Of a DNA stretch of 64,000 bases, positions 1,217 through 53,041 are shown in pieces. The notes under the pieces are model-generated. The model saw nothing but the letters and a program-made list of their open reading frames with translations, had not been told where the DNA came from and did no database searches. The stretch's first letter is position 1; every line of letters begins with the position of its first letter. The stretch comes from a virus: positions 1-64,000 of the IMG/VR virus record IMGVR_UViG_3300045988_161338; one strand, 5' to 3'. The translations under genes and the position numbers were made by a program.

Positions 1217-4200
1217 ATGGTAACAAAGAAAATCAATTTAGGAAGAGTGGGCTTTGCGCCAAAAGGTGCATATTCGCCCGAAACGACCTATGGTAGGTTG
1301 CATGTGGTGACATGGAAGAACACCACCTATTGGAGTAAGCAGGAGGGCAACACAGGACATGAGCCTGTGGGCGAAGACGAGTGGTGGGGCATTCTTGTGG
1401 ACGGTCAGGCTTCTTATGACGCTGCCGGGACGGCACAGACCGCTGCACAGACCGCCACGACAGCCGCTGACAACGCCAACACCAAAGCCCTTGCTGCTGA
1501 ACAGTCGGCGACGAGAGCCAACGCGGCGAGCGACAAGCTGAACGCTGCTTTGGATAAGGTGACGGAGGCGACGAACAACGCCAACGGAAGCGCGGACAGC
1601 GCCAGCACACAGGCAGCACGCGCACAGGATGCTGCTGAGAAGGGCGAGGCTATGAACGAGCGCATGGCGATTAACCTCACGGAGGTAGAGAAGACCACTA
1701 AGGCCATCAATGAGCTGAACGCCACAGCCACTGCTGCGGAGACAGAGCGCACAAAAGCCGAAGCAGCGCGAGGCGAGGCAGAGAGCGGACGCGCCACAGC
1801 CGAGACACAGCGCACGGAAGCGGAGGATGCACGGCGCACAGCCGAGACTGAGCGTAAGAGTGCCGAGAAATTGAGAGCATCTGCCGAGGCCCGTCGTGAT
1901 GCAGCCGAGACACAGCGCGACAAAGCCGAGCAGAACCGCGTGAAGGAGACTTCACAGGCTCTCGCCGAGGTTAAGACCGCCACAGACACAGCCCTGCAAG
2001 CTGCGGGTGCGGCACAGACGGCCGCGAGCGCGGCAGAGCAGAGCGCCACGGCTGCAAACAACGTGAACGCCACGCTTGCCGAAGACGGCACACTGACGAT
2101 AACCGACAGAGAGGGACATGAAGCCTCGATAAACATAGGCGAGGGAGAGAAGGTGAAAGAGCTTGTGGCCTCGATGGAGCGCGTGAAGGCGAGTCTGGGC
2201 CACTACACGGCGCGTCCCGACATTGTGCTCACGGCTGCTGAGCAGAACGTGGCCATAAGCGCCGACGGCGTGAAGGTGGCAAAGACAGGCTGGGCCATCG
2301 CCGAGTTTACGGCAGAGAAGGGCAACGAATATCTGTTCAAGCCCAACATCGTAGACGGCACGGTGTGTATCTTTGCCGAGAAGATCAGCAGTGTGGAGAC
2401 GCGCAGCATCGACTACACCTACACCTACAACGAGGATGGCACGACAGCCACAGCCACAGCTACCTATCTGGGTAAGACACACGCCTATAGCTATGCCTAC
2501 GCCGACGGTGAGGACGGCACGAAGAGCATGACCATTACCGACGAGAGCGGAGCTGTGGTGACAGAGCTGCCTTATCAATATAAGACCACCGTAGGTTCCT
2601 ACGCCCCGCTTGTGCGCCTTAACGCTGAAGCCGAGCTGCCCGAAGACGGCTATTGTCGTTTCATGAGCCATTTCCAGGGCAACGCCTCCATGACGGTTGC
2701 TGTGAGCTACAAGACGGGCACAGCCGATTTGACGATGAAGGTGCTGCGTGACGGCGTGTTCGCCTCTATCTCCACACAGCTCGGCAATCTGAGTCAGAAG
2801 GAGAACGAGACACGTTCGCTCGCCGTTGAGCTGAAGGAGAAGATGGCAATATTTATTGACACCAACCCCTATGTGGGCATGGTAAGGATGAACGGCGACG
2901 CGAGCCCTGACGCGGAAATGACGTTTGGCGACAAGCAGTTGATGCATGAGGTGGGAGCCGAGTGGAAGCTGGCAACGGTGAAGGACGGTGTGGTGACACA
3001 CGTCTGTGCCCCCGGCCGTCTGACCCTCGACGAGAACGGCGAGGAGGTGAAGATCGACGGAAGCGATGGTGACGTGATTCTCATAAACCGCAACGCCAAT
3101 TTGATCAATGCGACAAAGGTTATTGACGGACGCGAGATGAACTGTTTGGCTATCGGCAAGACAGCGGCCAAATGGTACGGTGTGGAGTCGAAAAAGATGC
3201 CCGCGTTCGGCATGACACCCTGTGAGATCGTGAACGCGAAGATCGAGGGGGATACAAGGTCACAGGCACACTGCGTGTACAACACGACACTGAACGGAAT
3301 GTACGGCACGGCCGACACTTCTGTGCTGAAAGCATCTTACATAAACAGAGGGGCGGGCCACGCTTCAAACATAAGTTCTGTGTCAAGCATACAGAACGCA
3401 CAGAACAAGAATACAGATCCGTTGACCGCCCGTCCTTACATGGGCTGGCACCATGGCACCTACGAGGCTCTTCTGACCACCATGTTTGCGGAGATAGGCT
3501 CGGTTGACCACACCGGCGTGAAGATGTTTGGCTCGGGCGTGACAGCGCAAAACATAAGCGCGAGCCAGTTTAACGACGATGCGATAAGTGGCGTGAGCGG
3601 CTGGAAGATCATTGCTGCTACAGGCGAGACCTACTATAACCATTATTTAAGTTCACAGGCCTATGTCGTAAGCAAGAACAAGAACATTCAGCTTGCGAAC
3701 GGCTTGTCAACAGCCTTATACAACCCTGTGCAGCTGCTTGAAGGCCAACGCATACTTGATGCCATCGCCAAGGCAGGACTTATTGACAAGATAGGCAACA
3801 AAGCCAACATTTTCTATTATGACGAGAACGGCAACGCCGTGTGTGCAAGCGACGGCAGCGTGAACCTCGATACAGGCGAGGGCATGGAGATGCTAAAATT
3901 CTATTTTGTCGTGCGCGATGTTCCTCGCTGTGAGGGAATGAAGGACGGTGTTATGACCGCTGTGGTGAACCGATATGTCAAGACAGAGATTGCCGACGGT
4001 TGTCAGAGCACCGACAAGAAGGTGTCATTTGACGGGGCTATTGCCATTCTGAAGGTAAGCATACCCGTGTATCGCGGTTTCACCTTGCCTTACGTCGGGC
4101 AGTTCCGTCAGATAAGCTACGCCTATTACACAATACATAACATTGATGGAGCCACGCATGTAGACTACCGTTGCACGGAGAGCATGGAAGATGTGCAGCC

Positions 4201-4573
4201 GCTGACGGTGTTCAATAATAACGCCTTTCAATGTGTCTACGGCACCAAGCCCCCAATGCTCGTTGGACTCAACAAGATGAAGGATTATGGTGTGACGGAC
4301 ATGCGAGAGAGTAATATAAAGTCTTCCGACTATAACATGTCGCAATTCTGCTATAAGACGGTAGGTTCTTCGCTCCACACGCACGAATGTACCTACTTAT
4401 GGTTATCTCCGTCAAACAATGGAGGAGTGGGCACGTCTCAGGTACACGGCTCTGTGGTTGGTTGCTATGCGAGCAGCAGCAGCGTCTCGGCTCGTGCTGC
4501 GTTCTGTAACTCTCACGCTGGCTTTGGCCACGGCATCTACGCTGGGGCGTTCGCTGTCCTCCTAAAACAATAA
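1217..4573 (+). CDS. tail-fibre-like receptor-binding protein; DGR target with C-terminal variable region
   Basis: 1118-aa ORF with an N-terminal globular part, a long Ala/Glu/Arg-rich coiled-coil stretch (AETxR-type repeats, about aa 70-290) and a large C-terminal domain. Codons 1077-1114 form the VR, which is in frame. Confidence 0.85.
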   Translation: MVTKKINLGRVGFAPKGAYSPETTYGRLHVVTWKNTTYWSKQEGNTGHEPVGEDEWWGILVDGQASYDAAGTAQTAAQTATTAADNANTKALAAEQSATRANAASDKLNAALDKVTEATNNANGSADSASTQAARAQDAAEKGEAMNERMAINLTEVEKTTKAINELNATATAAETERTKAEAARGEAESGRATAETQRTEAEDARRTAETERKSAEKLRASAEARRDAAETQRDKAEQNRVKETSQALAEVKTATDTALQAAGAAQTAASAAEQSATAANNVNATLAEDGTLTITDREGHEASINIGEGEKVKELVASMERVKASLGHYTARPDIVLTAAEQNVAISADGVKVAKTGWAIAEFTAEKGNEYLFKPNIVDGTVCIFAEKISSVETRSIDYTYTYNEDGTTATATATYLGKTHAYSYAYADGEDGTKSMTITDESGAVVTELPYQYKTTVGSYAPLVRLNAEAELPEDGYCRFMSHFQGNASMTVAVSYKTGTADLTMKVLRDGVFASISTQLGNLSQKENETRSLAVELKEKMAIFIDTNPYVGMVRMNGDASPDAEMTFGDKQLMHEVGAEWKLATVKDGVVTHVCAPGRLTLDENGEEVKIDGSDGDVILINRNANLINATKVIDGREMNCLAIGKTAAKWYGVESKKMPAFGMTPCEIVNAKIEGDTRSQAHCVYNTTLNGMYGTADTSVLKASYINRGAGHASNISSVSSIQNAQNKNTDPLTARPYMGWHHGTYEALLTTMFAEIGSVDHTGVKMFGSGVTAQNISASQFNDDAISGVSGWKIIAATGETYYNHYLSSQAYVVSKNKNIQLANGLSTALYNPVQLLEGQRILDAIAKAGLIDKIGNKANIFYYDENGNAVCASDGSVNLDTGEGMEMLKFYFVVRDVPRCEGMKDGVMTAVVNRYVKTEIADGCQSTDKKVSFDGAIAILKVSIPVYRGFTLPYVGQFRQISYAYYTIHNIDGATHVDYRCTESMEDVQPLTVFNNNAFQCVYGTKPPMLVGLNKMKDYGVTDMRESNIKSSDYNMSQFCYKTVGSSLHTHECTYLWLSPSNNGGVGTSQVHGSVVGCYASSSSVSARAAFCNSHAGFGHGIYAGAFAVLLKQ
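4445..4558 (+). repeat. DGR variable region (VR)
   Basis: 114 nt aligned by hand to 4951-5064: 98 identities and 16 mismatches, every mismatch opposite an adenine of the TR copy. Confidence 0.85.
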
Positions 4574-4950
4574 TTTAATCGAGAGTAATAAACAATAATA
4601 ATTAACAATAGTCTCAATCGCAAGCTGCGTCTTAGCAAGCTGCGGCGAGAGCCCAAGCAAGAAGGCCATGACCTGAAGCCAAAGCGGAGCGGCGGAACGT
4701 CTTAGTGGAGCCGCTCCCCGCCTCGATTTTCAGACCAAAGATGCGGAAGGACGACATCAAAAAAAAGAGTTTTAACATGAAGAAACAAAAACACAACGTG
4801 CATGGGGAGGCGAAAGCCTCTGCGCCTCGCGGCAAGGGTCGCGGGTACGTCGGCATGGTGTGTGAGCATGTGGCGAGAGGTGTGTGCGCGACCTATCCCA
4901 GTCACGACAACGCACACGCGGACGACACATGCAAGACCGAAGGTGAGAAG

Positions 4951-5064
4951 AACGGCTCTGTGGTTGGTTGCAATGCGAACAACAGCAACGTCTCGGCTCG
5001 TACTGCGAACTGTAACAATCACGCTGGCAATGGCAACAACAACTACGCTGGGGCGTTCGCTGTC
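4951..5064 (+). repeat. DGR template region (TR)
   Basis: Adenine-rich copy with 9 AAC and 3 AAT codons. It lies between the target gene and the RT domain. The identical GC-rich 3' end GCTGGGGCGTTCGCTGTC is shared with the VR. Confidence 0.85.
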
Positions 5065-5238
5065 AACACGGAAAAAGGGAAACCTCTCACATCGGGAGCA
5101 GCAAGCTCAAAGACTAAAGATGGCCATGTCGCCACTGGTGGGCATGGACGATGCGATTACGGCTCGGAGCTGCCCTTCTGGGACAGCTGCGGGAGCGCGG
5201 AAAGCAACGTGTCGGCTACCGTTGAGGAAGCTGACGTT

Positions 5239-6612
5239 ATGGAAGAGTTGAAGACAGCCAACAAGAAGAGGAAACTGAAAAACCTCAGACGTTTCTTCGT
5301 GAACAGAACAATTATAGAGATGGCGTTTGACCGCACGATGGACCGGACGGATGCGCCCGACAGCGTGATTGAAGCATGGACGGCACAGAAGCAGAAGGTG
5401 TGTGACAGGATTGAACGCGAGCTGCGCGACATGACCTACACGCCGAAGCCGCCGAAGCGCAAGGTGATACACAAGAAGGGCAAGGGCGACAAGGACAGGA
5501 ACGCTGACGTGTCGGCGATGTATGACCGCATTGTGCAGACGCTAACCCTTCTCGTCATTGAGAAGAAGCTGCGCAACATGATGGTCCGTAACATCTATTC
5601 GGGCATCAAGGGCCGTTCGCTGCTTAGCAAAGACCGACGGTTCTGCATGGTGAACAAGATACGTCAATGGGTGAAGGGCCACCCCGACATGTGGGTGGGC
5701 CAGACCGACATTCGCCATTTCTACGAGACGTTGCAGACGCGCATCGTGCTGGGCGAGCTGTTCAAGGTTGTGGTGTGTCCATACACGCGATGGCTGCTTA
5801 CACGGCTGTTCATGCACATGGAATATCTGCCCATCGGCGGATGCCTCAGTCAGCTTCTTGCCATGTTTGTGCTTGTCATCGCCGACCGCGAGGTGTTGCG
5901 CCGCTACAAGGTTGACCTGTTCGGTTTTGGCGACAACAGGTTGATGTGTGGAGAGAAGAAGGAGGTGAGAGAGGCGATGAGCTTTCTTATGTCTTTCTAT
6001 GCGGGGCGCTTCTCGCTGGCGGTGAAAGGCGACTACCAGATGCGGCGCGTGGGCGACGGCTTCCGCTTCTGCAAGTATGACTACAAGCAGAGCTATGTGC
6101 ATGTGCGTGCGGAGATGCGGCGACGCGCCATAAGAGGTAGGGCGACGGGCTGGAAACACTATGCAGGCTACCGTGGCATGCTGCTAAAGACGGACAGTGT
6201 GAGGTTGAGACACATGATAGAGGACAACTATATGAAACTTGTAAACAAGCACGGCATGACCGTGACGACACAGAAAGGCGACAAGGTGAAGCTGCGTGAC
6301 TTGGCAGACGGCAGCGTGGTGGTGCCTGTGGAGTTTAACATCGAGTCGTCGGAGGCGAAAGCCAAGGAAGGCAAGGAGGGGTTCATGGTAAGGTTGACGT
6401 ATGTCTGTCTGCATGACGGTCAGAAACGGCTTTGTCACTCTACAGAGGGCAGCGAGGAGATAGTGGAGTTTTTCCGTCTTGTTGCCAACGGTACTGCGGA
6501 GCTGCACCAACACCTTCATGTAAAGCATGACGGCACAAAGGTGTTCTTCGACGAATATCACACCACGAAGCAGGAGGCGTGTGACCTGATATGTGCTGAG
6601 CTGGGAATTTAG
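5239..6612 (+). CDS. DGR-type reverse transcriptase (motif C reads FGDN, not YxDD)
   Basis: The listed ORF 4705-6612 reads through the TR. The RT-like part shows PKRKVI..DRIVQ, YSGIKGRS, GQTDIRHFY, LPIGGCLSQ (DGR-type IGxxxSQ), LFGFGDNRLM and FRFCKY, in the order seen in Bordetella Brt. ATG 5239 is the first in-frame Met after the TR, so the start is uncertain. Confidence 0.75.
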   Translation: MEELKTANKKRKLKNLRRFFVNRTIIEMAFDRTMDRTDAPDSVIEAWTAQKQKVCDRIERELRDMTYTPKPPKRKVIHKKGKGDKDRNADVSAMYDRIVQTLTLLVIEKKLRNMMVRNIYSGIKGRSLLSKDRRFCMVNKIRQWVKGHPDMWVGQTDIRHFYETLQTRIVLGELFKVVVCPYTRWLLTRLFMHMEYLPIGGCLSQLLAMFVLVIADREVLRRYKVDLFGFGDNRLMCGEKKEVREAMSFLMSFYAGRFSLAVKGDYQMRRVGDGFRFCKYDYKQSYVHVRAEMRRRAIRGRATGWKHYAGYRGMLLKTDSVRLRHMIEDNYMKLVNKHGMTVTTQKGDKVKLRDLADGSVVVPVEFNIESSEAKAKEGKEGFMVRLTYVCLHDGQKRLCHSTEGSEEIVEFFRLVANGTAELHQHLHVKHDGTKVFFDEYHTTKQEACDLICAELGI

Positions 6613-6638: not shown

Positions 6639-7199
6639 ATGATGAGATTAGAATTTATGGAGCGTCAGCAAACGCTGACCATTTGCAAGGGCGGCAGACA
6701 GGCGTTGGTGCTGCTGGGCGAGAGTGAGGAGAAAAGGGAGCAGGAGTCTCCCGACGGTGAGAAGACGGAGGCTACAGTCTATGTCTATGACGCGACATGG
6801 CTTGACCTGACGAAGCAGCATGACCCGGTGGCTGCGGCGCGTGAGGAGGTTCTGAAGCAGATCGAGGCATATGATACCTCGTCTGCCGTGAACGGCTTTA
6901 TGCTCAACGGCGCGGTGGTGTGGCTCGACAAGGCCACGCGCGTGGGGCTGATGAACTCAACGACCATCGCGAAGGCTATGGGACAGGCTACGACGACGCT
7001 GTGGCTCGGGAACACAAAGCTGGAGGTGGGCTGTGACATGGCCATTCAGCTGCTCTCGGCACTTGAGATGTATGCCCTGGAGTGCTTTAACGTTACGGCG
7101 GCTCACAAGAAGGCTGTGGGCGAGCTGACGAGCGTTGAGGAGGTGCTGACCTACGACTACACTAAGGGCTACCCTGCGAAGCTGACGATGACGGTTTAG
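6639..7199 (+). CDS. hypothetical protein, possibly fibre-associated (DUF4376-like)
   Basis: 186-aa ORF just after the DGR. The central segment (SSAVNGFMLNGAVVWLDKATRVGL) resembles phage fibre-accessory DUF4376 proteins. Weak by-eye call. Confidence 0.45.
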   Translation: MMRLEFMERQQTLTICKGGRQALVLLGESEEKREQESPDGEKTEATVYVYDATWLDLTKQHDPVAAAREEVLKQIEAYDTSSAVNGFMLNGAVVWLDKATRVGLMNSTTIAKAMGQATTTLWLGNTKLEVGCDMAIQLLSALEMYALECFNVTAAHKKAVGELTSVEEVLTYDYTKGYPAKLTMTV

Positions 7200-20760: not shown

Positions 20761-21035
20761 TTGTCGCCTCCTTTCTCTTTTTCGTGTACATTATTTTTCA
20801 TATTATCTATTTCGTCTGTTATATTGCCCATTTCGTCTGTTATATACTTGTACACCTTGCGACACCACTCTTCGGGAGGTGTGCCATAGAGAGAGTCGGC
20901 CTTTTGCTTTATGCTATTGATTCTATTTAGCATGCAAAAATGCCAGAACAGGTAGGAGGGTGCCTTTTCCCTTGCTAACTCTTGTTTTGTGACTCCACCG
21001 AGGAGGTGGATGAGATAAGACTTTATATGTTTCAT
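20757..21035 (-). CDS. hypothetical protein
   Basis: 92-aa ORF with a 4-nt overlap. Confidence 0.5.
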   Translation of the reverse strand: MKHIKSYLIHLLGGVTKQELAREKAPSYLFWHFCMLNRINSIKQKADSLYGTPPEEWCRKVYKYITDEMGNITDEIDNMKNNVHEKEKGGDK

Positions 21036-29946: not shown

Positions 29947-31134
29947 ATGAAGTACAGGATTTATGTGGATTTCACAAAGAAGAAGAAGGACGGGACTGCG
30001 CCCGTGGTGTTGATTTTTGAGGGTTGCGGCAAGCGTTTCAAGCTCTCTACAGGTCTTTGTGCGGTGAACAACATTGTGGGCCGCGCGTTTCAGAAGGGAG
30101 AGCCTTGCGCTACGGCGAAGAACGCGGTGCTGGCGAAGAAGCTGCTGGCCGTTGACCAGTTTATGCTGTTGCGGGGCGACAACATGCCCGTTGACGAGCT
30201 AAAGGACGAGCTGCGGCTCATCTTGAGCAACAGGCAGAAGAGCGCGAAGACGCTGGTTCACTATATCGAGCGTTTTGCGGACACGAAGGAGCGCAAGGGG
30301 ACGCGCGACCTGTATGACCTTGCCGCGCGTAAGGTGGCTGCCTTTGACGCCAAGGCGACGTTTGAGGACGTTGACGTGAGGTGGCTTGACGGTTTTGTGC
30401 GCTCGATGGGTGACGTGAGCGTGAACTATCAGTCGATCATGCTTCGCAACATAAGGACGGTGTTCAACTGGGCCATCGACAACGAGTGGACGGACAAATA
30501 TCCGTTCAGGCGTTACAAGATTAAAAGCGAGAAGGTGGCGATAAACAACATCACGGTTGCGCAGCTTCGCGCGGTGAGGGACTATCCGCTGGATGATGAC
30601 TGGCGGTGCATGTACAGGGACCTGTTCATGCTTGTGTTCTATCTGTGCGGCATCAACCCCGTTGACCTGCTGCACCTGAAGAAGGAAAACCTGAAGAACG
30701 GCAGGATACGCTACAAAAGGGCCAAGACGGGGCGTTTGTATGACATACCTGTGCCGACGGAGGCCCGGAAGATTATAGAGCGTTACAGGGGAAAAGAATG
30801 GCTTCTGTGCCCACTTGACAGGTTTGGGTCACACAAGGACTTTGACGCGCACTGGAACGCTGCCCTGAAGAAGATTGGTCCTGTGAGGATTGTTCCCGAC
30901 AAGGTGGGGAGGATGAGAAAGATGGAATGGGAGCCGATTGTGGACGGTATGACGATATACACGGCGCGTTACACGTTTGCGAGCATCGGCGCGGAGCTTG
31001 ACATTCCGAGAGAGACGATAGCCTTGTGTCTTGGCCATGCCTGGACGGACGTGACGAGCCGATACATAAGCTACGACAACAAGAAGATTGACGGGGCTGT
31101 GAAGAAGATTATCGGTTACGTCAACAAGGCGTAA
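29947..31134 (+). CDS. tyrosine recombinase / integrase (IntDOT-like, Asn at the Arg-I position)
   Basis: YTARYTFASIG and LCLGHAWTDVTSRYISY box II. Box I reads LCGINPVDLL. Confidence 0.8.
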   Translation: MKYRIYVDFTKKKKDGTAPVVLIFEGCGKRFKLSTGLCAVNNIVGRAFQKGEPCATAKNAVLAKKLLAVDQFMLLRGDNMPVDELKDELRLILSNRQKSAKTLVHYIERFADTKERKGTRDLYDLAARKVAAFDAKATFEDVDVRWLDGFVRSMGDVSVNYQSIMLRNIRTVFNWAIDNEWTDKYPFRRYKIKSEKVAINNITVAQLRAVRDYPLDDDWRCMYRDLFMLVFYLCGINPVDLLHLKKENLKNGRIRYKRAKTGRLYDIPVPTEARKIIERYRGKEWLLCPLDRFGSHKDFDAHWNAALKKIGPVRIVPDKVGRMRKMEWEPIVDGMTIYTARYTFASIGAELDIPRETIALCLGHAWTDVTSRYISYDNKKIDGAVKKIIGYVNKA

Positions 31135-33315: not shown

Positions 33316-33805
33316 GATTTTTGATATTTTAAGAGATTATATTTAGGCCGCAAATTTACGGAATAATCTGCTACCCTGCAAGATTTTTTGCGGCTTTAAC
33401 ACGGATTTAACAAATTTCTGCCGTGTATTGTGTGCTGGCATGGGTGTGTGCCTGTGTGTGCGTATATGCGTAGGCGCACACATGCTCACGCGCACGCGCG
33501 CGCGAAAAAGCCCGTTTTTTTCTCCAAACCTTGGGTCTTGTAGAAACCCAGTTTTTGGCTTTCGAAAAGTTTACAAAGAAAAAGAAGCAAAAAGAAAGAA
33601 CATAAATAATATATATATATATTTATTATATATTAACTAGCTATTAACGCGCGACCTTAGCTTTTATACATGTACCTTATTATATACATGTGTATTATAA
33701 GGTGAAAAGTGGAATTTTGGTGATTTTTGGGTGTTTTTGATGTCTGATTGTGGATTTTTATGCCGTAAAAGGCTGATAATTAGCGACATAGAACCCATAG
33801 AAACG

Positions 33806-33985
33806 GTGATACGATATGAAACGAAAGTGATACGATTGCGATACGGTTTGTAAAAGACTGATACACAATAGGTTATACGATTTTAGGGTGAGCCGTTTGT
33901 GATACACGATACATCATGGAGGCTTGTAACGTACTGATTATAGGGTAGTTACAATCGTATCGTAATCGTATCACCAACGTATCAC
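33806..33985. repeat. iteron-like GATAC(G/A) array
   Basis: GTGATACGAT at 33806 and 33827. Variants at 33838, 33858, 33872 and 33899-33914. Inverted copies ATCGTATC..ATCGTATCAC..CGTATCAC at 33954-33985. Confidence 0.7.
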
Positions 33986-34097
33986 AATAATATATAAGGG
34001 GTTGTTGTGGTCGGACGGGACCTATTGGGAAATTGGGGCAGACTGGGGCAAAAACAGGGTCTGAGGGACGAAGAGCCCCGCTTGTAAGCAGGGCTCT

Positions 34098-34130
34098 TTT
34101 ACATGGGGTTTACATGGGGTTTACATGGGG
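34098..34130. repeat. 3 x 11-nt tandem repeat TTTACATGGGG
   Basis: Read directly. Preceded by the hairpin AGAGCCC/GGGCTCT (34072-34097). Confidence 0.85.
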
Positions 34131-34137
34131 TCATGGT

Positions 34138-35412: not shown

Positions 35413-36546
35413 CTACATGGAATGCGTGAGGCTGTCGGGTTGCGGGCGTTCGGGGATGACGGCATTGGTGTCGTCGGGGAGGTTGTCGAACGCCTGTGCT
35501 ATGGCAGGGTCGTCGTAAGACGGCGACGGCGAGTGGAGCGCGAGCTGTTCGGCTTCGAGCTGTTCGGAGCCAGGCAGACGGAAAGCCTGGAAGGCTGCCG
35601 GGGAGAGCTGGAGGCGCGTGACGATGTAGCGCTGCGTCATGGCTATGTCAGGGGCGTTGCCCGTGAGATGACCCATCATGAGGGCTATCTGTTCAAGCGG
35701 CACGTTCTTAAGCGACAGGTTTGTGGCGAAAGAGCGCCGCCCGGTGTGGGTGGAGACAAACTGCCACTTGGGGCCTGTCTGCTCCCTGCCCGCCTGAAAG
35801 ATCTTTACCTTTGTGTTGATGCCGCAAGCCTTGCAGAAGAAGCGCACGCCCTCATTGTAGGACGATACGGCAACGGATGCAGGCTCGGTGGGCGAAGACG
35901 GTGTGAGGTACTGGCGCAGCCACGGATGGACAGGCACCGTGACCTCGCGGCGCGTCTTCTGCGCGACATAGGTGATGGTGCGTCCGTCGGGCGAGATATT
36001 GTCGGGCGAGAGGCGCACACAGTCGGACAGTCGCGCTCCACACAGACACTCAAGCATGAAAATGCGCTTGATGTGCCTTCTTTTTGCCGTGCGCGGCAGA
36101 TAAGAGTGGAGACGGTATATTTCCCCGTCTGTAAGATAAACGGCCTGTGTGACCGTTTTCTTGGTTTTCAGGACCTTTGCGTAAGACATGGACGGGATGT
36201 CCTTGGAGTCGGCGTTGGCACTTATGATCGAATTGATCTCGGCACAGATTGTCTTTACCGAGTTGGGCGCATAAGCCTCGTCGAGCTCTGCCTTTAAGTC
36301 GCGGAGGTTGTCGTCGGTGATGTCGCTCCACATGGGAGCCCGCCCCAAGATGTCGCGAAAGATGTTGAGCACCTTTATGCGACCGGGGTATTTCCAGATA
36401 TACGCGCCGTAGAACGTATGTCGCCAACGGTAGCCGTCGTAAGTAGAGAAATAGCCCTGACGGATGGCGTTGGCATAAGTCTTCTGTTGCTCAGAAGAGA
36501 GCAACACCGTCCAACGGCGCGTCGGGATTGTCGGAAGATGTTTCAT
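35413..36546 (-). CDS. tyrosine recombinase (second integrase; full R..HxxR..H..Y set)
   Basis: Start MKHLPTIP at 36546, inside the artefactually long ORF 35413-37011. CGARLSD, HTGRRSFAT, MMGHLTG...TQRYI. About 70-aa C-terminal tail. Confidence 0.8.
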   Translation of the reverse strand: MKHLPTIPTRRWTVLLSSEQQKTYANAIRQGYFSTYDGYRWRHTFYGAYIWKYPGRIKVLNIFRDILGRAPMWSDITDDNLRDLKAELDEAYAPNSVKTICAEINSIISANADSKDIPSMSYAKVLKTKKTVTQAVYLTDGEIYRLHSYLPRTAKRRHIKRIFMLECLCGARLSDCVRLSPDNISPDGRTITYVAQKTRREVTVPVHPWLRQYLTPSSPTEPASVAVSSYNEGVRFFCKACGINTKVKIFQAGREQTGPKWQFVSTHTGRRSFATNLSLKNVPLEQIALMMGHLTGNAPDIAMTQRYIVTRLQLSPAAFQAFRLPGSEQLEAEQLALHSPSPSYDDPAIAQAFDNLPDDTNAVIPERPQPDSLTHSM

Positions 36547-36610
36547 ATCTAAAAGTTTTGGTTTAACATGGGGCGCGTGACGAGGACGCGCCATTTGAGG
36601 CAGGGGTGTG

Positions 36611-37057
36611 TCAGAAGAGCGTGACCTTATAGACAGGTAAGCCGAAGCTCTTGCGCCGTCGGCCGACGGTGAAGCCCAGCATCTTGAGCAGACCAACGGC
36701 GTTGGCGGCGAACGGCTCGTCAACAATGATGTGAGGGCGGCTGATCTCGTCGTCCTGAAGGGTCCCGAAATGAGGACCGTCAGGCTCTTGCCGCAAGAGT
36801 TCGGGAGGGACGGCGTAGCCGATGAAGACCTCGCCACACAAACGTTCGGCAGAGGTGACGAAGAGCGACGACGCGAAGCCCGACTTTGGAGCGTCCTTAA
36901 AGTCGGCAAACCTAAGGACATAGATGAGCAGATAGTCTTCAACGCTATGGTCACGGAAGAACATTGCCACATCGGCCTGGAAAGCCGCTGTGTCGAAGAC
37001 AGGAGCGACAAAACCCTTCTCTTTGAGAATGTCTTGCGCCCGAACGATTTTAGACAT
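36611..37057 (-). CDS. hypothetical protein
   Basis: 148-aa ORF with the CATAATTCT start context. Confidence 0.6.
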   Translation of the reverse strand: MSKIVRAQDILKEKGFVAPVFDTAAFQADVAMFFRDHSVEDYLLIYVLRFADFKDAPKSGFASSLFVTSAERLCGEVFIGYAVPPELLRQEPDGPHFGTLQDDEISRPHIIVDEPFAANAVGLLKMLGFTVGRRRKSFGLPVYKVTLF

Positions 37058-37739
37058 AATTCTTGTTTTTAAGGTTCTACTTAGGTTATTGCAAAGGTAG
37101 TAATATTTGCAATAACATTGTGTTTTGCCAAACCCATTAACACTTAATTAACACAAGGTGTTAAAGAAAAGACGTGTCTTGACAACATGTCGCGATGTCT
37201 GTAAAGGATTGATGTGAAGCCTTGACGACATCCAGGTGATACCGGCTTATGATGCCGGTGGAACCTGTTGATGTTTGGCAGAGGGTTCACTAAAGGGAAT
37301 TGTCCTGACACGTCATGGGTTCGCGAAACCCTCTCCCCTCTCACATAAGATGCCGCATTGCTGTAAGGGTTTGATCTTGGTGATGATCGGACGATGAGAC
37401 GGGAGCCGCGGGGTCTCGTCTCATCGTATCAGGTCATCAGGCATGTTAACGAAGATATGCTTGAAGGGAGATGCGCTGCGGTGCGCGTGTGTGTGTGTGG
37501 TTTGGTTGTAGACACACCGAGAAGGGCGTGTCTTGTTTTAGGGCGGGAGCCAAGCAGGACGGCACATGGCTGTAAAGGATTGATATTGCCTGTAAGGAAC
37601 CAGAAAGAAGGTCCCTTGTTCCTTTCAGACAGGGATGCCCTGTCTTGAAAGAATAAGGGCCCTTCTTTCTGGATGTCTTATAGGAAAATTAAACTGAGCT
37701 GCTTCGCTGTCCGTCTCCGTGTGCGCGGAGGATGAGGGG
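37058..37739. ncRNA. ORF-free, hairpin-dense region 3' of the RT (three CTGTAAAGGATTGAT-type boxes)
   Basis: Boxes at 37199-37213, 37361-37375 and 37570-37584. Stems at 37085-37116 (11 bp), 37241-37259, 37281/37327, 37391-37426 (11 bp) and 37600-37672 (12 bp, with an inner GACAGGG/CCCTGTC). (GT)n at 37488-37500. The transcribed strand is unknown. Confidence 0.45.
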
Positions 37740-39005
37740 TCAGATGTTGTCTACGAGAGCGTCGTAAGCAGCCCTGCGTGTGAGCATGGCGGCCTGAGCG
37801 CAACCGATGGTGAGATAACCCTCGATGATTTGTTCAGTGGCCAACCTGTTGGCCCTGACATTCTTGCCTTTGCCCCTTGCGATGCAGCCGTCTTTCTGCA
37901 TCTTGTCGAAGCCGAGGCCACCAAGCTTTTTCTTGCCCGTCTGAACGGCCCGCAGGCAGTCGAGGACGAACGTGTTGAGGATGGAGACGTCTCTCTTGAC
38001 GTTGATGATGGGCAAGACCTGTGTGGCCCATGAGTGGGAGCCGAAGCCTTTGTAGAGGTACTTGTTGACCGCGTTGACCGCACGTTGGAGCGTGGTCTCG
38101 CGCCAGTTGACGGTTCTACGTTCAATCTCCTTCTGGAACGTCTTGATGCGCGAAGGAGAGAGCGAGATGTCATGGCCCTTGACGGCAAAGCCGAGGAACT
38201 TGAACCAATGGTTGGAATCGAGATACTCGACCTTTTTGGGGTTGAGCTTCATGGACATCTTGTCGAGCTCCTGCTGCAAGACGGTCATGGCCTGAGCATA
38301 ATCGTCGCCGATGTAGAGCATGTCGTCAGAATAGCGTACATAATAGCCATTAAGACAGGACAGCTTCTCGTCGATGTGACAGAGCAGCACGTCGGCGAGC
38401 CATGCAGCCACGGCACAGCCCTGCTTAAGGGACTGATAGCTGTTGCAGATGTTGCCGTCGGGGTCGAAGAACGTGTCGCAATGGTAATAGCTGCGAAGAA
38501 GAGCGATGAGCGCGGACTGGCCGTGCATCTCTTCGATGCGGTCAAAGATCGCGTCGATGAAAGAGAGCGGGACAGAGTCGAAATATTTAGACAAGTCGGA
38601 CTTGAAGCCTATCGTCTTGCCTTCGGCAGCACACACCATGCGCGAAGCCTCCTGCACGACACGGCCACAGCCAATGCCTTTCTGGTAAGACTTGCATGAG
38701 CTGTGGACCATGTCGGGCGCGAGGTCGAACAAGAGGTCGTTGATGCCGCTCAGCAACACCCGGTCAACAGGCTCGTTGACATAGACGGTACGGTAGTCGC
38801 CGTTGTCCTTTGGTATCAGGGCAGCATGGGGCGGCATGATTTTGTACTGCCCGTCCCTTATGCGCTGATAGAGGAGAGCGCGAGCTTCTGGCGTTGTGAG
38901 CTGATAAAGCGTTGCTTTGTCGATGCCCTTGTCTACGCCCTTGTTGATGGCCTGTTGCCACCGTTGAGGCTCGAAGAGCATCTGGAGGATTTTGTCTTCT
39001 TTCAT
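37740..39005 (-). CDS. reverse transcriptase (stand-alone; not DGR-, retron- or obviously group-II-like)
   Basis: 421 aa: IPKDNGDYRTVYV, SDLSKYFDSV, LKQGCAVAAWLAD, YVRYSDDMLYIG, KLNPKKVEYL...FKFLGF, plus a C-terminal region of about 120 aa. Confidence 0.85.
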   Translation of the reverse strand: MKEDKILQMLFEPQRWQQAINKGVDKGIDKATLYQLTTPEARALLYQRIRDGQYKIMPPHAALIPKDNGDYRTVYVNEPVDRVLLSGINDLLFDLAPDMVHSSCKSYQKGIGCGRVVQEASRMVCAAEGKTIGFKSDLSKYFDSVPLSFIDAIFDRIEEMHGQSALIALLRSYYHCDTFFDPDGNICNSYQSLKQGCAVAAWLADVLLCHIDEKLSCLNGYYVRYSDDMLYIGDDYAQAMTVLQQELDKMSMKLNPKKVEYLDSNHWFKFLGFAVKGHDISLSPSRIKTFQKEIERRTVNWRETTLQRAVNAVNKYLYKGFGSHSWATQVLPIINVKRDVSILNTFVLDCLRAVQTGKKKLGGLGFDKMQKDGCIARGKGKNVRANRLATEQIIEGYLTIGCAQAAMLTRRAAYDALVDNI

Positions 39006-39054
39006 AATTCTGTTGTTTAATGGTTTTGAGAAGGTCTGCCGTTGGAGGCAGACC

Positions 39055-39227
39055 CTGTTGGGAAGCGTGCGGCCACGGGCGCGGGCCTTGCTTTAAAGGA
39101 TTGATACGAAAGCTTCTGAAGAGAAGATCGGGGAATCAGGAAATCTTCCTGAAGACGCGATCTTGGTTCTTAAGAGCTTTGTTAAACAGAAGCCCGTCCA
39201 CCACACGCCGTGCGGCTTGAAGAGGTG
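39055..39227. ncRNA. ORF-free structured leader 5' of the RT (one box copy)
   Basis: Box CTTTAAAGGATTGAT at 39091-39105 between GCTTT/AAAGC flanks. Stem GAAGAT/ATCTTC at 39123-39148. GC-rich palindromic stretch at 39066-39088. Confidence 0.45.
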
Positions 39228-40238
39228 TTACTTTTGCTGTTTCTGCACCTTCCACTCATGGACCTTGTCCTCGATGGAGATGCCAGCGTCGGCGATGAGC
39301 TGCTTCATGACACCCATCATGCGCCAGCCCTCTTTCTCGTACTCGCGAGCTTTGTCCTCGACATGCCGCAAAGACGCCTTTTCGCCCTTTGACGCGAAGC
39401 GTGCGCCATGGAACATGACGAGGTTGCGCATGGTGAAATAGGCACCCGCGCCCTTGTAGGCATTGATGAACGCATCGGCCTGCTTGGTTCTCCATTTAAG
39501 ATGCGGACGCTGCTTGTTGAAGCTGACGACGAGCTGATAAAGCTCCCTGTAAGACTTGGCTTGCTTGACGGCAAGAGAAGCCTTGACGACAGGCGTATAG
39601 AGTTTTCTGCCGATGTCGTTGAGGAAGACGTTCTTGCCAGCAATCTTGACGTAAGGCATGCCCTTGCAGGTGTGCTTATAAACCATCTCGCCACGCTTGT
39701 TGCGGCGGTGGGAGAGCTTGTCGACATGAGAACGCAGCTTAAAGAGATAGTCGTCTATCATGGCTGAGACCACGTCTTGGTTGAACCACAGGATGCGCTG
39801 CGAGAAGCAAGCGGCGTCGTTGTTCTCCTGCATCTTCGCGATGGCATGGAGCTCGTTTTCAAGCATGCGCCACTGATATTCGTAGCCGTTATGCTGAACG
39901 AGAGCGTTGAAACTTTCGCCCGACCTCTCCATTCGGCGAAGCAAGCGGAACATCTGCGCCATGACGAAACGGCGGAAGAGCGGGTGGACGTTGACGTAGC
40001 CCCCAGAAGCTATGCTCTGATAGATGGGGTCGTCGTCGAGGACCTGGACAGGTACACCGTCGACAACCTTGACCACCATGTCGCTTCCCATCGGGAAGAA
40101 GCACGATGTGTCGATGCCTGCTGCCTTGAGCGCAGCGATGCGGTCAACAGCCGTCTTCGGCTTGGAAGCGTTGGACGGCTTGGGTGCTGTCAGTTCGTTG
40201 ATTGTAAACTCGCCTGAGATGATGACGTTTCTTTTCAT
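39228..40238 (-). CDS. hypothetical protein
   Basis: 336-aa ORF immediately upstream of the RT leader. No motif recognised. Confidence 0.65.
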   Translation of the reverse strand: MKRNVIISGEFTINELTAPKPSNASKPKTAVDRIAALKAAGIDTSCFFPMGSDMVVKVVDGVPVQVLDDDPIYQSIASGGYVNVHPLFRRFVMAQMFRLLRRMERSGESFNALVQHNGYEYQWRMLENELHAIAKMQENNDAACFSQRILWFNQDVVSAMIDDYLFKLRSHVDKLSHRRNKRGEMVYKHTCKGMPYVKIAGKNVFLNDIGRKLYTPVVKASLAVKQAKSYRELYQLVVSFNKQRPHLKWRTKQADAFINAYKGAGAYFTMRNLVMFHGARFASKGEKASLRHVEDKAREYEKEGWRMMGVMKQLIADAGISIEDKVHEWKVQKQQK

Positions 40239-40307
40239 AATTCTATTGTTTTTTTGTTAATAATGATGGTTAAAAGAGGGAGCAAGGGATGGCGTTGCTC
40301 CCGTTTT

Positions 40308-40766
40308 TCAGGCTGTCTGGCGAGTTTTGGGCTCTACCCACGCACGAAGGATGATGAACTCTTTCTCGTAGGGCGACTGATAGAACCAACTGCCCCACTG
40401 TTCGTGCCAACATAGCTGGCCGCTGCGAAGCATGAGCAGGATGAACAGTTCGAGACGGCAGCGTGCGGTCTCGCGTGCAGCTCCGTAGATCATGTCCTCG
40501 TCAGAAAGCCCGTCTTCAGGCAGCGCCTTGAAATAGCGTCGGCGGTGAGACTCGGACCTCTCCGAGGGGACAGAATGGCGATATTGCCAATAGAGATCTT
40601 CGATGCAGCGGAACATGACCGCTTCATCGACACGGAAGACATCAACCTCGTCGAGGTTGACAAGGCGGCCATCGAGACGGAGCGTGCGTTTTTCGAGATT
40701 GACCATGAAACGTGCGCCATCGTCTACCTTGGCACAGATAGCGTCGATAAACTCTGTGTGTTGCAT
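40308..40766 (-). CDS. hypothetical protein
   Basis: ATG 40766 (MQHTEFID) has the CATAATTCT context. The listed ORF extends further only through non-ATG codons. Confidence 0.55.
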   Translation of the reverse strand: MQHTEFIDAICAKVDDGARFMVNLEKRTLRLDGRLVNLDEVDVFRVDEAVMFRCIEDLYWQYRHSVPSERSESHRRRYFKALPEDGLSDEDMIYGAARETARCRLELFILLMLRSGQLCWHEQWGSWFYQSPYEKEFIILRAWVEPKTRQTA

Positions 40767-40789
40767 AATTCTTATTTGTTGGTGAATAA

Positions 40790-40977
40790 GAAACCGCCAC
40801 ACACAGAAGCGTGAGACGGTCTGTTTAAAGGCTTGCATGTGAAAGACCTGGCGCAATTGCTATAAACGGTTGATGTTACCAGTTGTAACGCCGCACAGCG
40901 CGGCGTGCTTAAGAACTGGTCGCTAAAGGCTGTCTTTCCGGCACACAGAATTTCAGGCTGCGCTGCCTTCTCGGGAT
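40790..40977. ncRNA. ORF-free structured spacer with a degenerate box copy
   Basis: GGTCT-[GTTTAAAGGCTTGCATGTGAA]-AGACC at 40818-40848. Nested stems ACCAGTT/AACTGGT and CGCCGC/GCGGCG at 40879-40918. Confidence 0.35.
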
Positions 40978-41250: not shown

Positions 41251-41311
41251 AATTTCATAATATTGGTTAAACAAGAAGGGGAGGCATTACACCTCCCCCT
41301 TTTCAGGATTT

Positions 41312-51865: not shown

Positions 51866-53041
51866 ATGAAGAACGTAAAGATTTTTGCCAAGACCATCGA
51901 GCCTGAAGCCCAGAAGCAAGTAAGGCAGATGGCAGAGAGCGAGGCATACCGCGACTGCAAGATTCGCATTATGCCTGACTGCCATGCCGGCAAGGGATGC
52001 ACCGTAGGCACTGTGATTGAAACCCGTGGCAAGGTCGTGCCTAATACCGTAGGCGTGGATATAGGCTGTGGTATGTTGGTATTCAAGTTCGCCGAGAAGG
52101 ATATAAACCTTTCGCTTCTCGACCGAATCATCAATGAGTCGGTGCCGAGTGGATTTGACGTTCACGAAAAGTCCAAGCTAAAAGTTTTGAATCCGCTTAC
52201 GTCACATCTTTTGCTCGATTTATACGAAAGGACACAAGGCTGCTTCGACCCCGACTATATCGGACGCTCGCTTGGCACCCTCGGTGGCGGCAATCACTTC
52301 ATCGAGCTGGACGAGGACGAGCAGGGTTATAAGTATCTTGTGATACATTCGGGCAGTCGCAATCTCGGAGTTAAGGTGTGCAACTATTTCCAACACTTAG
52401 CCAAGAAGAATGTGAATCGAAACGAGGAGCGCAAGCGCATCATCGAAGACTTAAAGAAGTACGGCTTAGAGAAGGAGATTAACAATACGTTGCGTCGTTT
52501 GGGTACCGTGCCTCCCGATCTCGCCTATCTTGAGGGAGAAGACCTCGATGCCTATATTTTCGCAGCGAACGTCTGTCAGTGTTTTGCCGACGACAACAGA
52601 TGGAATATAGCAATGACTATCATCCATGGGCTTCATTTACCGTTCGTGAATTTCTTTACCACCAGGCATAACTATTTCGACATACACTCAGGCATCATCC
52701 GAAAAGGAGCCGTGCGTGCCGAAAATGGCGAACAGCTTATCATCCCACTTAATATGCGCGACGGTTCGTTGATATGCCGCGGCAAGGGCAATGAAGACTG
52801 GCTTTGCTCGGCTCCGCACGGTGCTGGCAGACTAATGTCGCGCTCGGCGGCCAAGAAACAGCTCAGCATGGAGGAATACCGACAGCAGATGCACGATATT
52901 TACTCCACATCGGTATGCGAGTCAACAATCGACGAGTCACCCATGGCGTATAAGCCTGCCGAAGAGATAGAATCGCTTATAGCCGACACGGTGGACGTGG
53001 CGAGGAGAATTAAACCGATATACAACTTCAAAGCGAAATAA
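51866..53041 (+). CDS. rtcB: RtcB-family RNA 3'-phosphate ligase
   Basis: MPDCHAGKG, GGGNHFIEL, HSGSRNLG and SAPHGAGR (His nucleophile motif) are all present. Confidence 0.85.
   Translation: MKNVKIFAKTIEPEAQKQVRQMAESEAYRDCKIRIMPDCHAGKGCTVGTVIETRGKVVPNTVGVDIGCGMLVFKFAEKDINLSLLDRIINESVPSGFDVHEKSKLKVLNPLTSHLLLDLYERTQGCFDPDYIGRSLGTLGGGNHFIELDEDEQGYKYLVIHSGSRNLGVKVCNYFQHLAKKNVNRNEERKRIIEDLKKYGLEKEINNTLRRLGTVPPDLAYLEGEDLDAYIFAANVCQCFADDNRWNIAMTIIHGLHLPFVNFFTTRHNYFDIHSGIIRKGAVRAENGEQLIIPLNMRDGSLICRGKGNEDWLCSAPHGAGRLMSRSAAKKQLSMEEYRQQMHDIYSTSVCESTIDESPMAYKPAEEIESLIADTVDVARRIKPIYNFKAK

Follow-up and report, generated by a model that had tools for sequence, protein, structure and literature searches.

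A phage-borne UG27 reverse transcriptase locus with a tandem array of predicted structured RNA modules

The subject of this report is a reverse transcriptase (RT) gene and the spacers around it, devoid of open reading frames (ORFs), in a stretch of viral DNA of 64,000 nucleotides (positions 1 to 64,000 of the IMG/VR virus record IMGVR_UViG_3300045988_161338; hereafter the window). On the evidence of profile comparisons, the RT is a full-length member of the UG27 family, and its two neighbours, c337 and c346, are the conserved UG27 partner proteins. In the reading that we consider probable, the three genes form a phage operon that carries a tandem array of structured non-coding RNA (ncRNA) modules of about 170 nt, and the RT would copy these modules. 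A preliminary description of the locus had presented the RT as an orphan and the adjacent 336-aa and 153-aa proteins as unknowns. Neither view can be maintained, since the RT matches the UG27 profile, both partner proteins are present, and the system was already described in 2022 (Mestre et al., NAR 2022, PMC9226505).

The RT ORF (37740-39005, minus strand) encodes 421 aa and possesses, as had been noted before, the YSDD (...RYSDDM...) and FLGF (...KFLGFA...) motifs. Among the PADLOC profiles, RT_UG27 is by far the best match (E 3.5e-209, residues 3-420 of 421), followed at a great distance by UG26 (3.5e-34), UG17 (2.7e-25) and Drt9/UG28 (2.7e-21). Classification with hidden Markov models, which the preliminary description had recommended, thus places the RT in UG27 and neither in a retron nor in a group II clade, and PADLOC does not assign it to a group of diversity-generating retroelements (DGRs). 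The Pfam scan detected RVT_1 as its sole domain. The 336-aa protein that adjoins the RT (39228-40238, minus strand) is RTas337 (PADLOC E 2.3e-100), and the 153-aa protein (40308-40769, minus strand) is RTas346 (PADLOC E 1.4e-46). No Pfam domain was detected in c337 or c346, and a PDB sequence search conducted with c337 only gave no match. AlphaFold2 (AF2) models were obtained for both proteins: c337 (700 homologues) is mostly helical and was modelled with moderate confidence (pLDDT 77.5), and c346 (176 homologues) was modelled confidently (pLDDT 90).

UG27 has been defined as a Class 2 UG/Abi RT that is associated with proteins of clusters 337 and 346, occurs in phages of human-gut Bacteroidota and Firmicutes (1447 dereplicated phage genomes), and has a putative ncRNA "with three long stem-loops" in the intergenic region beside the RT (PMC9226505). 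The same study predicted a non-defence role for UG27. The wording 'Cluster 336' that also appears in this publication may be a slip for 346, or it may mean the 148-aa protein found next to the system in a minority of loci (see below). The window displays the attributes of the system: the RT profile, cluster 337, cluster 346, carriage by a gut phage, and a structured ncRNA beside the RT. That the locus is carried by a phage, as claimed earlier, is borne out by genes for a large terminase (TerL), a portal protein and a primase; the window, part of a tailed phage, also encodes an RtcB ligase and a second integrase.

Three ORF-free spacers accompany the genes, at 37058-37739 (682 nt), 39006-39227 (222 nt) and 40770-40977. 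The two that flank the RT have the lengths reported previously, and the third exists as described, but starts at 40770 and not at 40767. The spacers share a short box, CTGTAAAGGATTGAT, which has exact copies at 37199 and 37570, a copy with one mismatch at 39091 and another with two mismatches at 37361. When up to three mismatches are allowed, six matches are obtained against 1.5 expected, and none of 100 shuffled sequences reaches six. These four copies agree with the preliminary description; a further copy that it had placed at 40823 is present in the sequence, yet is not recovered by a family model. The fifth box of the locus is CTATAAACGGTTGAT at 40860-40874 (RNA sense ATCAACCGTTTATAG), which was found with a regular expression and lies within a match of the family model at 40843-40884 (E 5.6e-4). 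The box copies of the window all lie on the plus strand as the sequence is written, which is given as the sense orientation for the minus-strand genes.

The relatives used for comparison comprise 80 IMG/VR loci (RT identity 66-100%) and 29 loci from genomes of Bacteroidales and a few Firmicutes, among them Segatella, Bacteroides, Alistipes and others; one IMG/VR contig (L001) is 100% identical to the window. Across these loci the box proved to be conserved and strictly oriented. The pattern ATCA-N6-TA-N-AG occurs 420 times in sense and twice in antisense orientation in the 80 viral loci, and 119 times against 4 times in the 29 genome loci. The logo of 181 distinct copies extends the box to a 24-nt motif (ATCAA-N5-TAnAG-NN-A-N-G-YRMC), and a scan of the 109 related loci with a position weight matrix returned 741 sense and 8 antisense matches, so that the conservation of the box in homologous loci, as the preliminary description had anticipated, is evident. 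Beyond the window, its exact box recurs only in the two closest relatives; in a lineage of 67% identity, alignment reveals boxes at homologous positions with a variable centre. A sequence model built solely from the boxes of other loci (R1) was run over the whole 64-kb window and recovered the five boxes of the locus among its six best matches (E 2e-4 to 0.03), all on the minus strand; likewise, five of six pattern matches in the window, all on the minus strand, fall into the UG27 locus. The box is predicted to be unpaired (P 0.5-0.77) and its flanks to be strongly paired.

Downstream of the RT, each locus has two to eight boxes (seven being the mode where the gene order is the common one), and their spacing is regular (median 169 nt; 80% within 150-190 nt). 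The common order, which we term type B (RT, array, c346, c337), is present in 87 of 103 loci, so that the array is located between the RT and c346 in most of them; the remaining 16 loci, the window included, have the minority (type A) order c346, c337, RT, array. Type A loci usually continue with the 148-aa protein and an integrase, and tblastn detected no integrase homologue in any type B locus. The association with a tyrosine recombinase and a 148-aa protein pointed out previously is therefore real in the window, but holds only for the minority gene order. A hairpin-plus-box follows c337, with a box within 350 nt in 92 of the 101 testable loci. The 350 nt that precede c346 include a box in 74 of 87 loci of type B and in 8 of 15 of type A. 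The interval between c346 and c337 is free of boxes, the three system genes together contain only six, and the RT of type B loci has no upstream box in 84 of 87 cases. In the window, three modules follow the RT, one hairpin-and-box precedes c346, and another one follows c337. A module begins with a scaffold of short recurring motifs (ATGTGCC, TGAGA, AGCAC, TTCAAGGA, ATTTAG), continues with a long hairpin that varies from locus to locus, and leads up to the next box. Because a hairpin-plus-box comes after the RT ORF, after the modules and after the c346-c337 pair, the box would act as a 3' punctuation mark for every unit; the locus is most simply described as a series of transcript units (the RT, the individual modules, and c346 with c337), all of which have a long hairpin and a box behind them. 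The elements of the locus in the window, listed in the direction of the minus strand, are the following.

40879-40919, minus strand: hairpin directly 5' (RNA sense) of the box before c346, in the TTTAG-hairpin-box layout of the array modules
40860-40874, minus strand: box upstream of c346, RNA sense ATCAACCGTTTATAG (regular expression; R1 E 5.6e-4)
40308-40769, minus strand: c346 / RTas346, 153 aa (PADLOC E 1.4e-46; fold without known match)
39228-40238, minus strand: c337 / RTas337, 336 aa (PADLOC E 2.3e-100; fold without known match)
39113-39154, minus strand: hairpin of the module in the c337-RT spacer, homologous to the hairpin-plus-box after c337 of type B loci
39091-39105, minus strand: box after c337, 86 nt upstream of the RT start, ATCAATCCTTTAAAG (R1 E 0.015)
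39033-39054, minus strand: 8-bp hairpin GGTCTGCC...GGCAGACC between this box and the RT start codon (from sequence)
37740-39005, minus strand: UG27 RT, 421 aa, YSDD active site (PADLOC RT_UG27 E 3.5e-209)
37163-37739, minus strand: predicted ncRNA array with modules 37739-37570, 37569-37361 and 37360-37199, a closing helix and a U-tract (fold z; 109 homologous loci)
37600-37672, minus strand: long hairpin of module 1 with a 12-bp outer stem CCAGAAAGAAGG/CCTTCTTTCTGG (fold; relatives keep the pairing)
37570-37584, minus strand: box 1, ATCAATCCTTTACAG, extended motif to 37561 (R1 E 1.9e-4)
37391-37427, minus strand: long hairpin of module 2, with a second hairpin at 37510-37533 (fold, RNAalifold)
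37361-37375, minus strand: box 2, ATCAAACCCTTACAG (R1 E 8.1e-4)
37306-37313, minus strand: 5' arm GACGUGUC of a long-range helix around module 3 and box 3 (RNAalifold, columns 438-445 with 578-585)
37233-37267, minus strand: hairpin of module 3 (fold, RNAalifold)
37199-37213, minus strand: box 3, ATCAATCCTTTACAG (R1 E 0.032)
37163-37178, minus strand: 3' arm GACACGUC of the long-range helix (37171-37178), then the U-tract UUUUCUUU (37163-37170) (RNAalifold)
37092-37099, minus strand: Bacteroidota -7 motif TAccTTTG, about 35 nt upstream of the 148-aa gene (putative promoter, by comparison with the Bacteroides consensus)
35413-37057, minus strand: 148-aa protein (36611-37057) and tyrosine recombinase (35413-36600; Phage_integrase, E 2.4e-10), neighbours that do not belong to the core and are paired with the RT in type A loci only

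Several lines of evidence show that base pairing in the array is conserved. The 682-nt spacer folds with z-scores of -11.1 (sense) and -12.6 (antisense) relative to shuffled sequences. When the window is aligned with the lineage of locus L056, RNAalifold predicts 149 consensus pairs, of which 37 are compensatory in the sense that both sides have changed, and these include long-range helices that enclose a hairpin and its box. One of them, formed by GACGUGUC (37313-37306) and GACACGUC (37178-37171), contains three compensatory pairs and is followed by UUUUCUUU; a run of U residues after the closing helix is also present in the L056 lineage. Among 50 type B loci, 11 double-sided pair changes were counted against 4.7 +/- 1.3 in shuffled controls (0 of 500 reach this value), and pairing drops from 97.5% to 30-42% when the partners are slid against each other. 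The long hairpins of the modules differ in sequence between relatives and retain their pairing. They belong to rapidly evolving DNA: compared with a 97%-identical relative, parts of the module-bearing spacers carry 10-20 substitutions per 100 nt, against about 0-8 in the three system genes. The strong hairpins that had been noticed next to the boxes are real, the 12-bp outer stem at 37600-37672 among them.

The preliminary description had also proposed that complementary flanks enclose the box. Such flanks do exist, namely GGCA/TGCC, which is kept in relatives, and GATGTC/GACATC, but no helix in a fixed register encloses the box: position-by-position pairing over 185 boxes revealed no diagonal. 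A small stem formed by the upstream flank and the variable core of the box is marginal (3.10 against 2.93 +/- 0.10). Nor does the tail of a box pair with the head of its successor in an antiparallel series. An Rfam search found no family at the gathering threshold or at E <= 1.

The hairpins of the array were compared with the rest of the window by a 12-mer scan, and no long repeat emerged, the longest being 15 nt. This exact direct repeat, GAAGCCTTGACGACA (plus strand), is present at 37216-37230 next to box 3 and at 39577-39591 inside the c337 ORF; about 0.08 such matches would be expected by chance, which makes it a borderline case. A guide-like function of the array hairpins directed at other parts of the phage was rejected, given this single borderline match in c337 only.

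Further sequences that resemble the box were noticed. The rank-four match of R1 (20894-20923, minus strand; E 0.006; ATCAATAGCATAAAG) lies inside a 92-aa ORF among small genes and probably reflects chance. An ORF-poor stretch of about 800 nt at 33316-34137, downstream of the integrase, contains a degenerate box at 33848-33862 (RNA sense ATCAGTCTTTTACAA), which R1 did not recover. In the 100%-identical IMG/VR relative, the sequence ATCAGTCTTTTACAG at L001:8973 satisfies the box pattern.

The minus strand carries every gene from about 34.4 to 45.4 kb of the window. We assign the sense strand of the array to it because the boxes are biased in their orientation, no Bacteroidota -7 motif is present inside the array on either strand, and the first such motif, TACCTTTG (37092-37099, minus strand), is found just downstream of the array, some 35 nt before the 148-aa gene. 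ACTACCTTTG is identical in six of the seven sequences of alignment A1, the exception (L002) having one substitution outside TAnnTTTG. Its resemblance to known promoters suggests that this -7 motif marks the start of the next, separate transcription unit, and the helix arm plus U-tract at 37163-37178 is probably the 3' end of the array transcript, in the manner of a terminator. A strong terminator-like hairpin of 11 bp, six of them G-C, is situated at 41276-41300 (minus strand) between the genes for a 295-aa and a 98-aa protein upstream of the operon; the transcription unit that holds the UG27 system may begin there.

From these observations we propose the following course of events. The operon c346, c337 and UG27 RT would be read on the minus strand into an RNA that carries tandem modules of about 170 nt, each consisting of a conserved scaffold and a fast-evolving long hairpin with preserved pairing, and each ended by the 24-nt single-stranded box. 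The array of the window, short with its three modules, would end at the long-range helix and the U-tract near 37163, ahead of the 148-aa gene with its presumed own promoter. By analogy with other Class 2 UG/Abi enzymes, the RT would bind the module RNA, with box and scaffold serving as recognition or boundary element, and would make complementary DNA (cDNA) from a portion of each module, which is most probably the variable hairpin. The proteins c337 and c346 might be obligate partners or effectors in a conflict between phage and host or between phages. ncRNA-templated cDNA synthesis by the UG27 RT is suggested because of the class to which this RT belongs. All Class 2 UG RTs that have been characterised work iteratively on an ncRNA template, DRT2 by rolling-circle copying and DRT9 on a poly-U tract, and DRT10/UG17 produces protein-primed tandem-repeat cDNA (PMC12632851).

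A number of observations weigh against this proposal and need to be carefully considered. The antisense strand has the lower minimum free energy in 13 of 14 representative arrays, and among the pairs predicted on both strands, G.U pairs are rare and not biased to the sense strand (sense against antisense 1 to 11 and 13 to 16). In the window and the relatives (L001-L109) alike, Watson-Crick pairs make up about 95% of the array stems, and G.U pairs are very scarce whichever strand is folded; such purity is unusual for a structure that operates purely at the RNA level and would fit one that also folds as cDNA or DNA. No template signature was found. Circular ORFs of the Neo type do not exceed chance, with any circular open frame present in 15 of 239 modules, and module lengths are not biased to multiples of three. 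The box core is not complementary to neighbouring modules (z = 0.9 downstream and 2.1 upstream, against permuted controls), and a retron a1/a2-like or kissing interaction between box core and module was rejected, as it does not rise above these controls. The AF2 models of c337 and c346 have no Foldseek match in the PDB at E < 0.9, so that no effector activity can be named for them. Finally, Mestre et al. (PMC9226505) saw no enrichment of UG27 in defence islands.

Among the alternatives, we regard it as unlikely that the boxes are sites of RNA processing or punctuation and have no part in templating. An endonuclease (c337, c346 or a host enzyme) would cut a polycistronic transcript and thereby release the RT mRNA, the c346-c337 mRNA and hairpin RNAs that might serve as decoys or regulators, while the RT acts on something else. 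The position of the box, which stands behind the RT, behind every module and behind c337 but nowhere between c346 and c337, suits such a scheme; the box is also predicted to be single-stranded between helices, as many processing sites are, and the phage encodes an RtcB RNA ligase. However, no nuclease fold is detectable in c337 or c346, and in 109 loci across Bacteroidales and some Firmicutes the array goes strictly together with the RT gene, a linkage to be expected if the RT uses the RNA. Processing and templating are compatible with each other and not mutually exclusive. We find it improbable that the boxes function at the DNA level, be it as bending sites for integration host factor (IHF) or as arm-type (attP-like) sites of a recombinase, with hairpins that are incidental inverted repeats. 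This idea goes back to the preliminary description, according to which the copies of the window fit the IHF consensus WATCAANNNNTTR, and it draws further on the integrase located two genes from the array and on stems that, with their nearly pure Watson-Crick pairing and equal folding of both strands, behave as DNA inverted repeats would. Yet this fit is a coincidence of the copies in the window: the TT of the IHF consensus is not kept in the family logo (the first T of TTR is a T in 23% of 181 boxes), and the conserved positions TAnAG, A+17, G+19 and C+23 lie outside the consensus. Moreover, the boxes are oriented 741 to 8, always co-directional with the RT, 87 of the 103 loci have the array between RT and c346, tblastn detected no integrase homologue in the type B loci, and compensatory changes preserve intramolecular pairing that includes long-range helices about 140 nt apart.

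The boxes might also be promoters or start elements for a dedicated polymerase or factor, each module then being its own unit that is ended by the next hairpin; we hold this to be very improbable. The 3' half of the box, TA(T/A/C)AG, bears what we take to be a resemblance to the initiation region of promoters for single-subunit phage RNA polymerases, and the boxes of the window are located 86-91 nt upstream of the start codons of RT and c346. Against this stand the restriction of the motif to the UG27 locus instead of a spread over the phage genome, its lack of agreement with the Bacteroidota -33/-7 consensus, and the placement of the boxes, which follow every unit but precede the RT in only 3 of the 87 loci of type B; no RNA polymerase was matched in a partial screen of the window proteins, which did not include a systematic search for one. 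There is hardly any likelihood, in our view, that the locus is an integron-like cassette array in which the hairpin-plus-box elements are attC-like single-stranded DNA recombination sites, used by the neighbouring tyrosine recombinase for the shuffling of units. The circular permutation of the gene order (c346-c337-RT-array against RT-array-c346-c337) with boxes at the junctions would be accounted for, as would conserved structure combined with variable sequence. The tandem modules, however, contain no ORFs, and the conserved box lies outside the hairpin, where attC sites have paired R''/R' boxes inside. Sequence homology among the module scaffolds is a further difference from attC sites, and no type B locus gave a recombinase homologue in tblastn.

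As an extension of the proposed copying of modules by the RT, the box could be a universal 3' tag that marks the RT mRNA, each module of about 170 nt and the c346-c337 mRNA as substrates of the RT, so that UG27 would be a multi-template retroelement that makes different hairpin DNAs in single-stranded form. We consider this rather doubtful. If it were true, template switching from box to box would explain the module number of 2-8, the turnover of the hairpins and the permuted gene order, and the near-pure Watson-Crick stems would reflect the need to fold both as RNA and as cDNA.

UG27 RTs are among the most abundant RTs of human-gut phages, and they are phage-borne and do not reside in host defence islands. 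The RNA map presented here, with its module of about 170 nt, its 24-nt box and its hairpin-plus-box for each gene unit, provides direct handles for experiments. A cultured phage-host pair is also at hand: Bacteroides phage BS-TP1 (PQ571274.1, L110), whose host is B. salyersiae BG8, carries a complete UG27 system. Its gp79 (79351-80613), annotated as "tail protein", is an RT_UG27 (E 4e-228) and is followed by a 1.35-kb unannotated gap that holds the array; gp80 is RTas346 and gp82 is RTas337. BS-TP1 on B. salyersiae BG8 is thus usable as an experimental system. The readable text of the 2022 publication (PMC9226505) describes neither the 24-nt box nor the periodicity of about 170 nt nor the hairpin-plus-box that comes behind each gene unit. 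A preprint (10.64898/2026.09.22.753630; 24 September 2026) for which term counts are available (UG27 74, "ncRNA array" 10, hairpin 33, cDNA 24, plaque 0) has, judging by these counts, probably already described the UG27 array and possibly its cDNA.

Some further genes of the window merit brief mention. It contains two tyrosine recombinase genes on opposite strands about 5 kb apart, at 29947-31134 (plus strand) and 35413-36600 (minus strand). The RtcB-type RNA ligase (51866-53041, plus strand; Pfam RtcB E 1e-60) is encoded about 13 kb from the UG27 locus, and a link to the processing or the repair of array RNA is speculative. A second, divergent RT-like protein of 635 aa is encoded at 4705-6612 (plus strand), in the structural module between a 1118-aa tail-like protein (1217-4573, plus strand) and a DUF4376 protein (6639-7199, plus strand). 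It matches phrog_1423 'Reverse transcriptase' (E 5e-34) and the generic RT profile of PADLOC (E 6e-16), has no Pfam match, and could be a DGR-type or another RT.

The preliminary description had likened the locus to defence RTs of the DRT2/DRT9 type, and this comparison stands insofar as UG27 is a Class 2 UG/Abi RT without fused effector that is accompanied by a structured ncRNA; the defence role is putative, and the 2022 study predicted a role outside defence (PMC9226505). With DRT2 (UG2), which builds the neo gene by rolling-circle reverse transcription of a looped ncRNA, the window shares this RT class, an ncRNA that adjoins the RT, and a helix that closes a loop with the presumed template. 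The similarity of the RT itself is weak and partial (Drt2 E 1.7e-12, residues 195-322; PDB 9c0i E 1.6e-4), the UG27 ncRNA lies downstream of the RT and consists of several modules, and stop-free circular frames are no more frequent than chance. DRT2 membership was accordingly dismissed: the RT falls outside UG2, and a neo-like concatenated ORF is lacking. DRT9 (UG28) and DRT10 (UG17), which make protein-primed repetitive cDNA (poly-dA or tandem repeats) on an ncRNA template, have the nearest profiles after UG26 and likewise possess structured ncRNAs with essential stem-loops; DRT10 loci sometimes adjoin a dispensable tyrosine recombinase (PMC12632851). These systems differ from UG27 in having one ncRNA each and in residing in host defence islands, whereas UG27 has an array and is phage-borne; the effector of DRT10 is a SLATT protein, whereas c337 and c346 are without Pfam domain or recognisable fold; and neither a short template nor, other than the terminal UUUUCUUU, a poly-U tract is obvious in the array of UG27. 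The profile matches (Drt9 E 2.7e-21, UG17 E 2.7e-25) are far below that of UG27, and the window cannot be counted among DRT9 or DRT10.

Retrons resemble the window in the combination of a conserved RNA part and a long, highly variable hairpin beside the RT, and the AG(C) of the box is, as we presume, loosely like the context of the retron branching G. In contrast to retrons, the modules are arrayed 2-8 times, and no inverted repeat of the a1/a2 type joins the box to the module end; the best retron profile (E 2.6e-11) is remote from the 3.5e-209 for UG27, and a retron was ruled out. Nor is the locus a group II intron: there is no Rfam intron match, and Pfam reports RVT_1 only, without GIIM. With the UG27 system, on the other hand, the window has the RT, both partners, phage carriage, Bacteroidota hosts and structured ncRNA in common, and nothing essential differs; its distinguishing marks are the minority gene order and an array of three modules, against a mode of seven. 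What has been found in the window is hence a further member of the published UG27 family, a rediscovery to which anatomical detail has been added.

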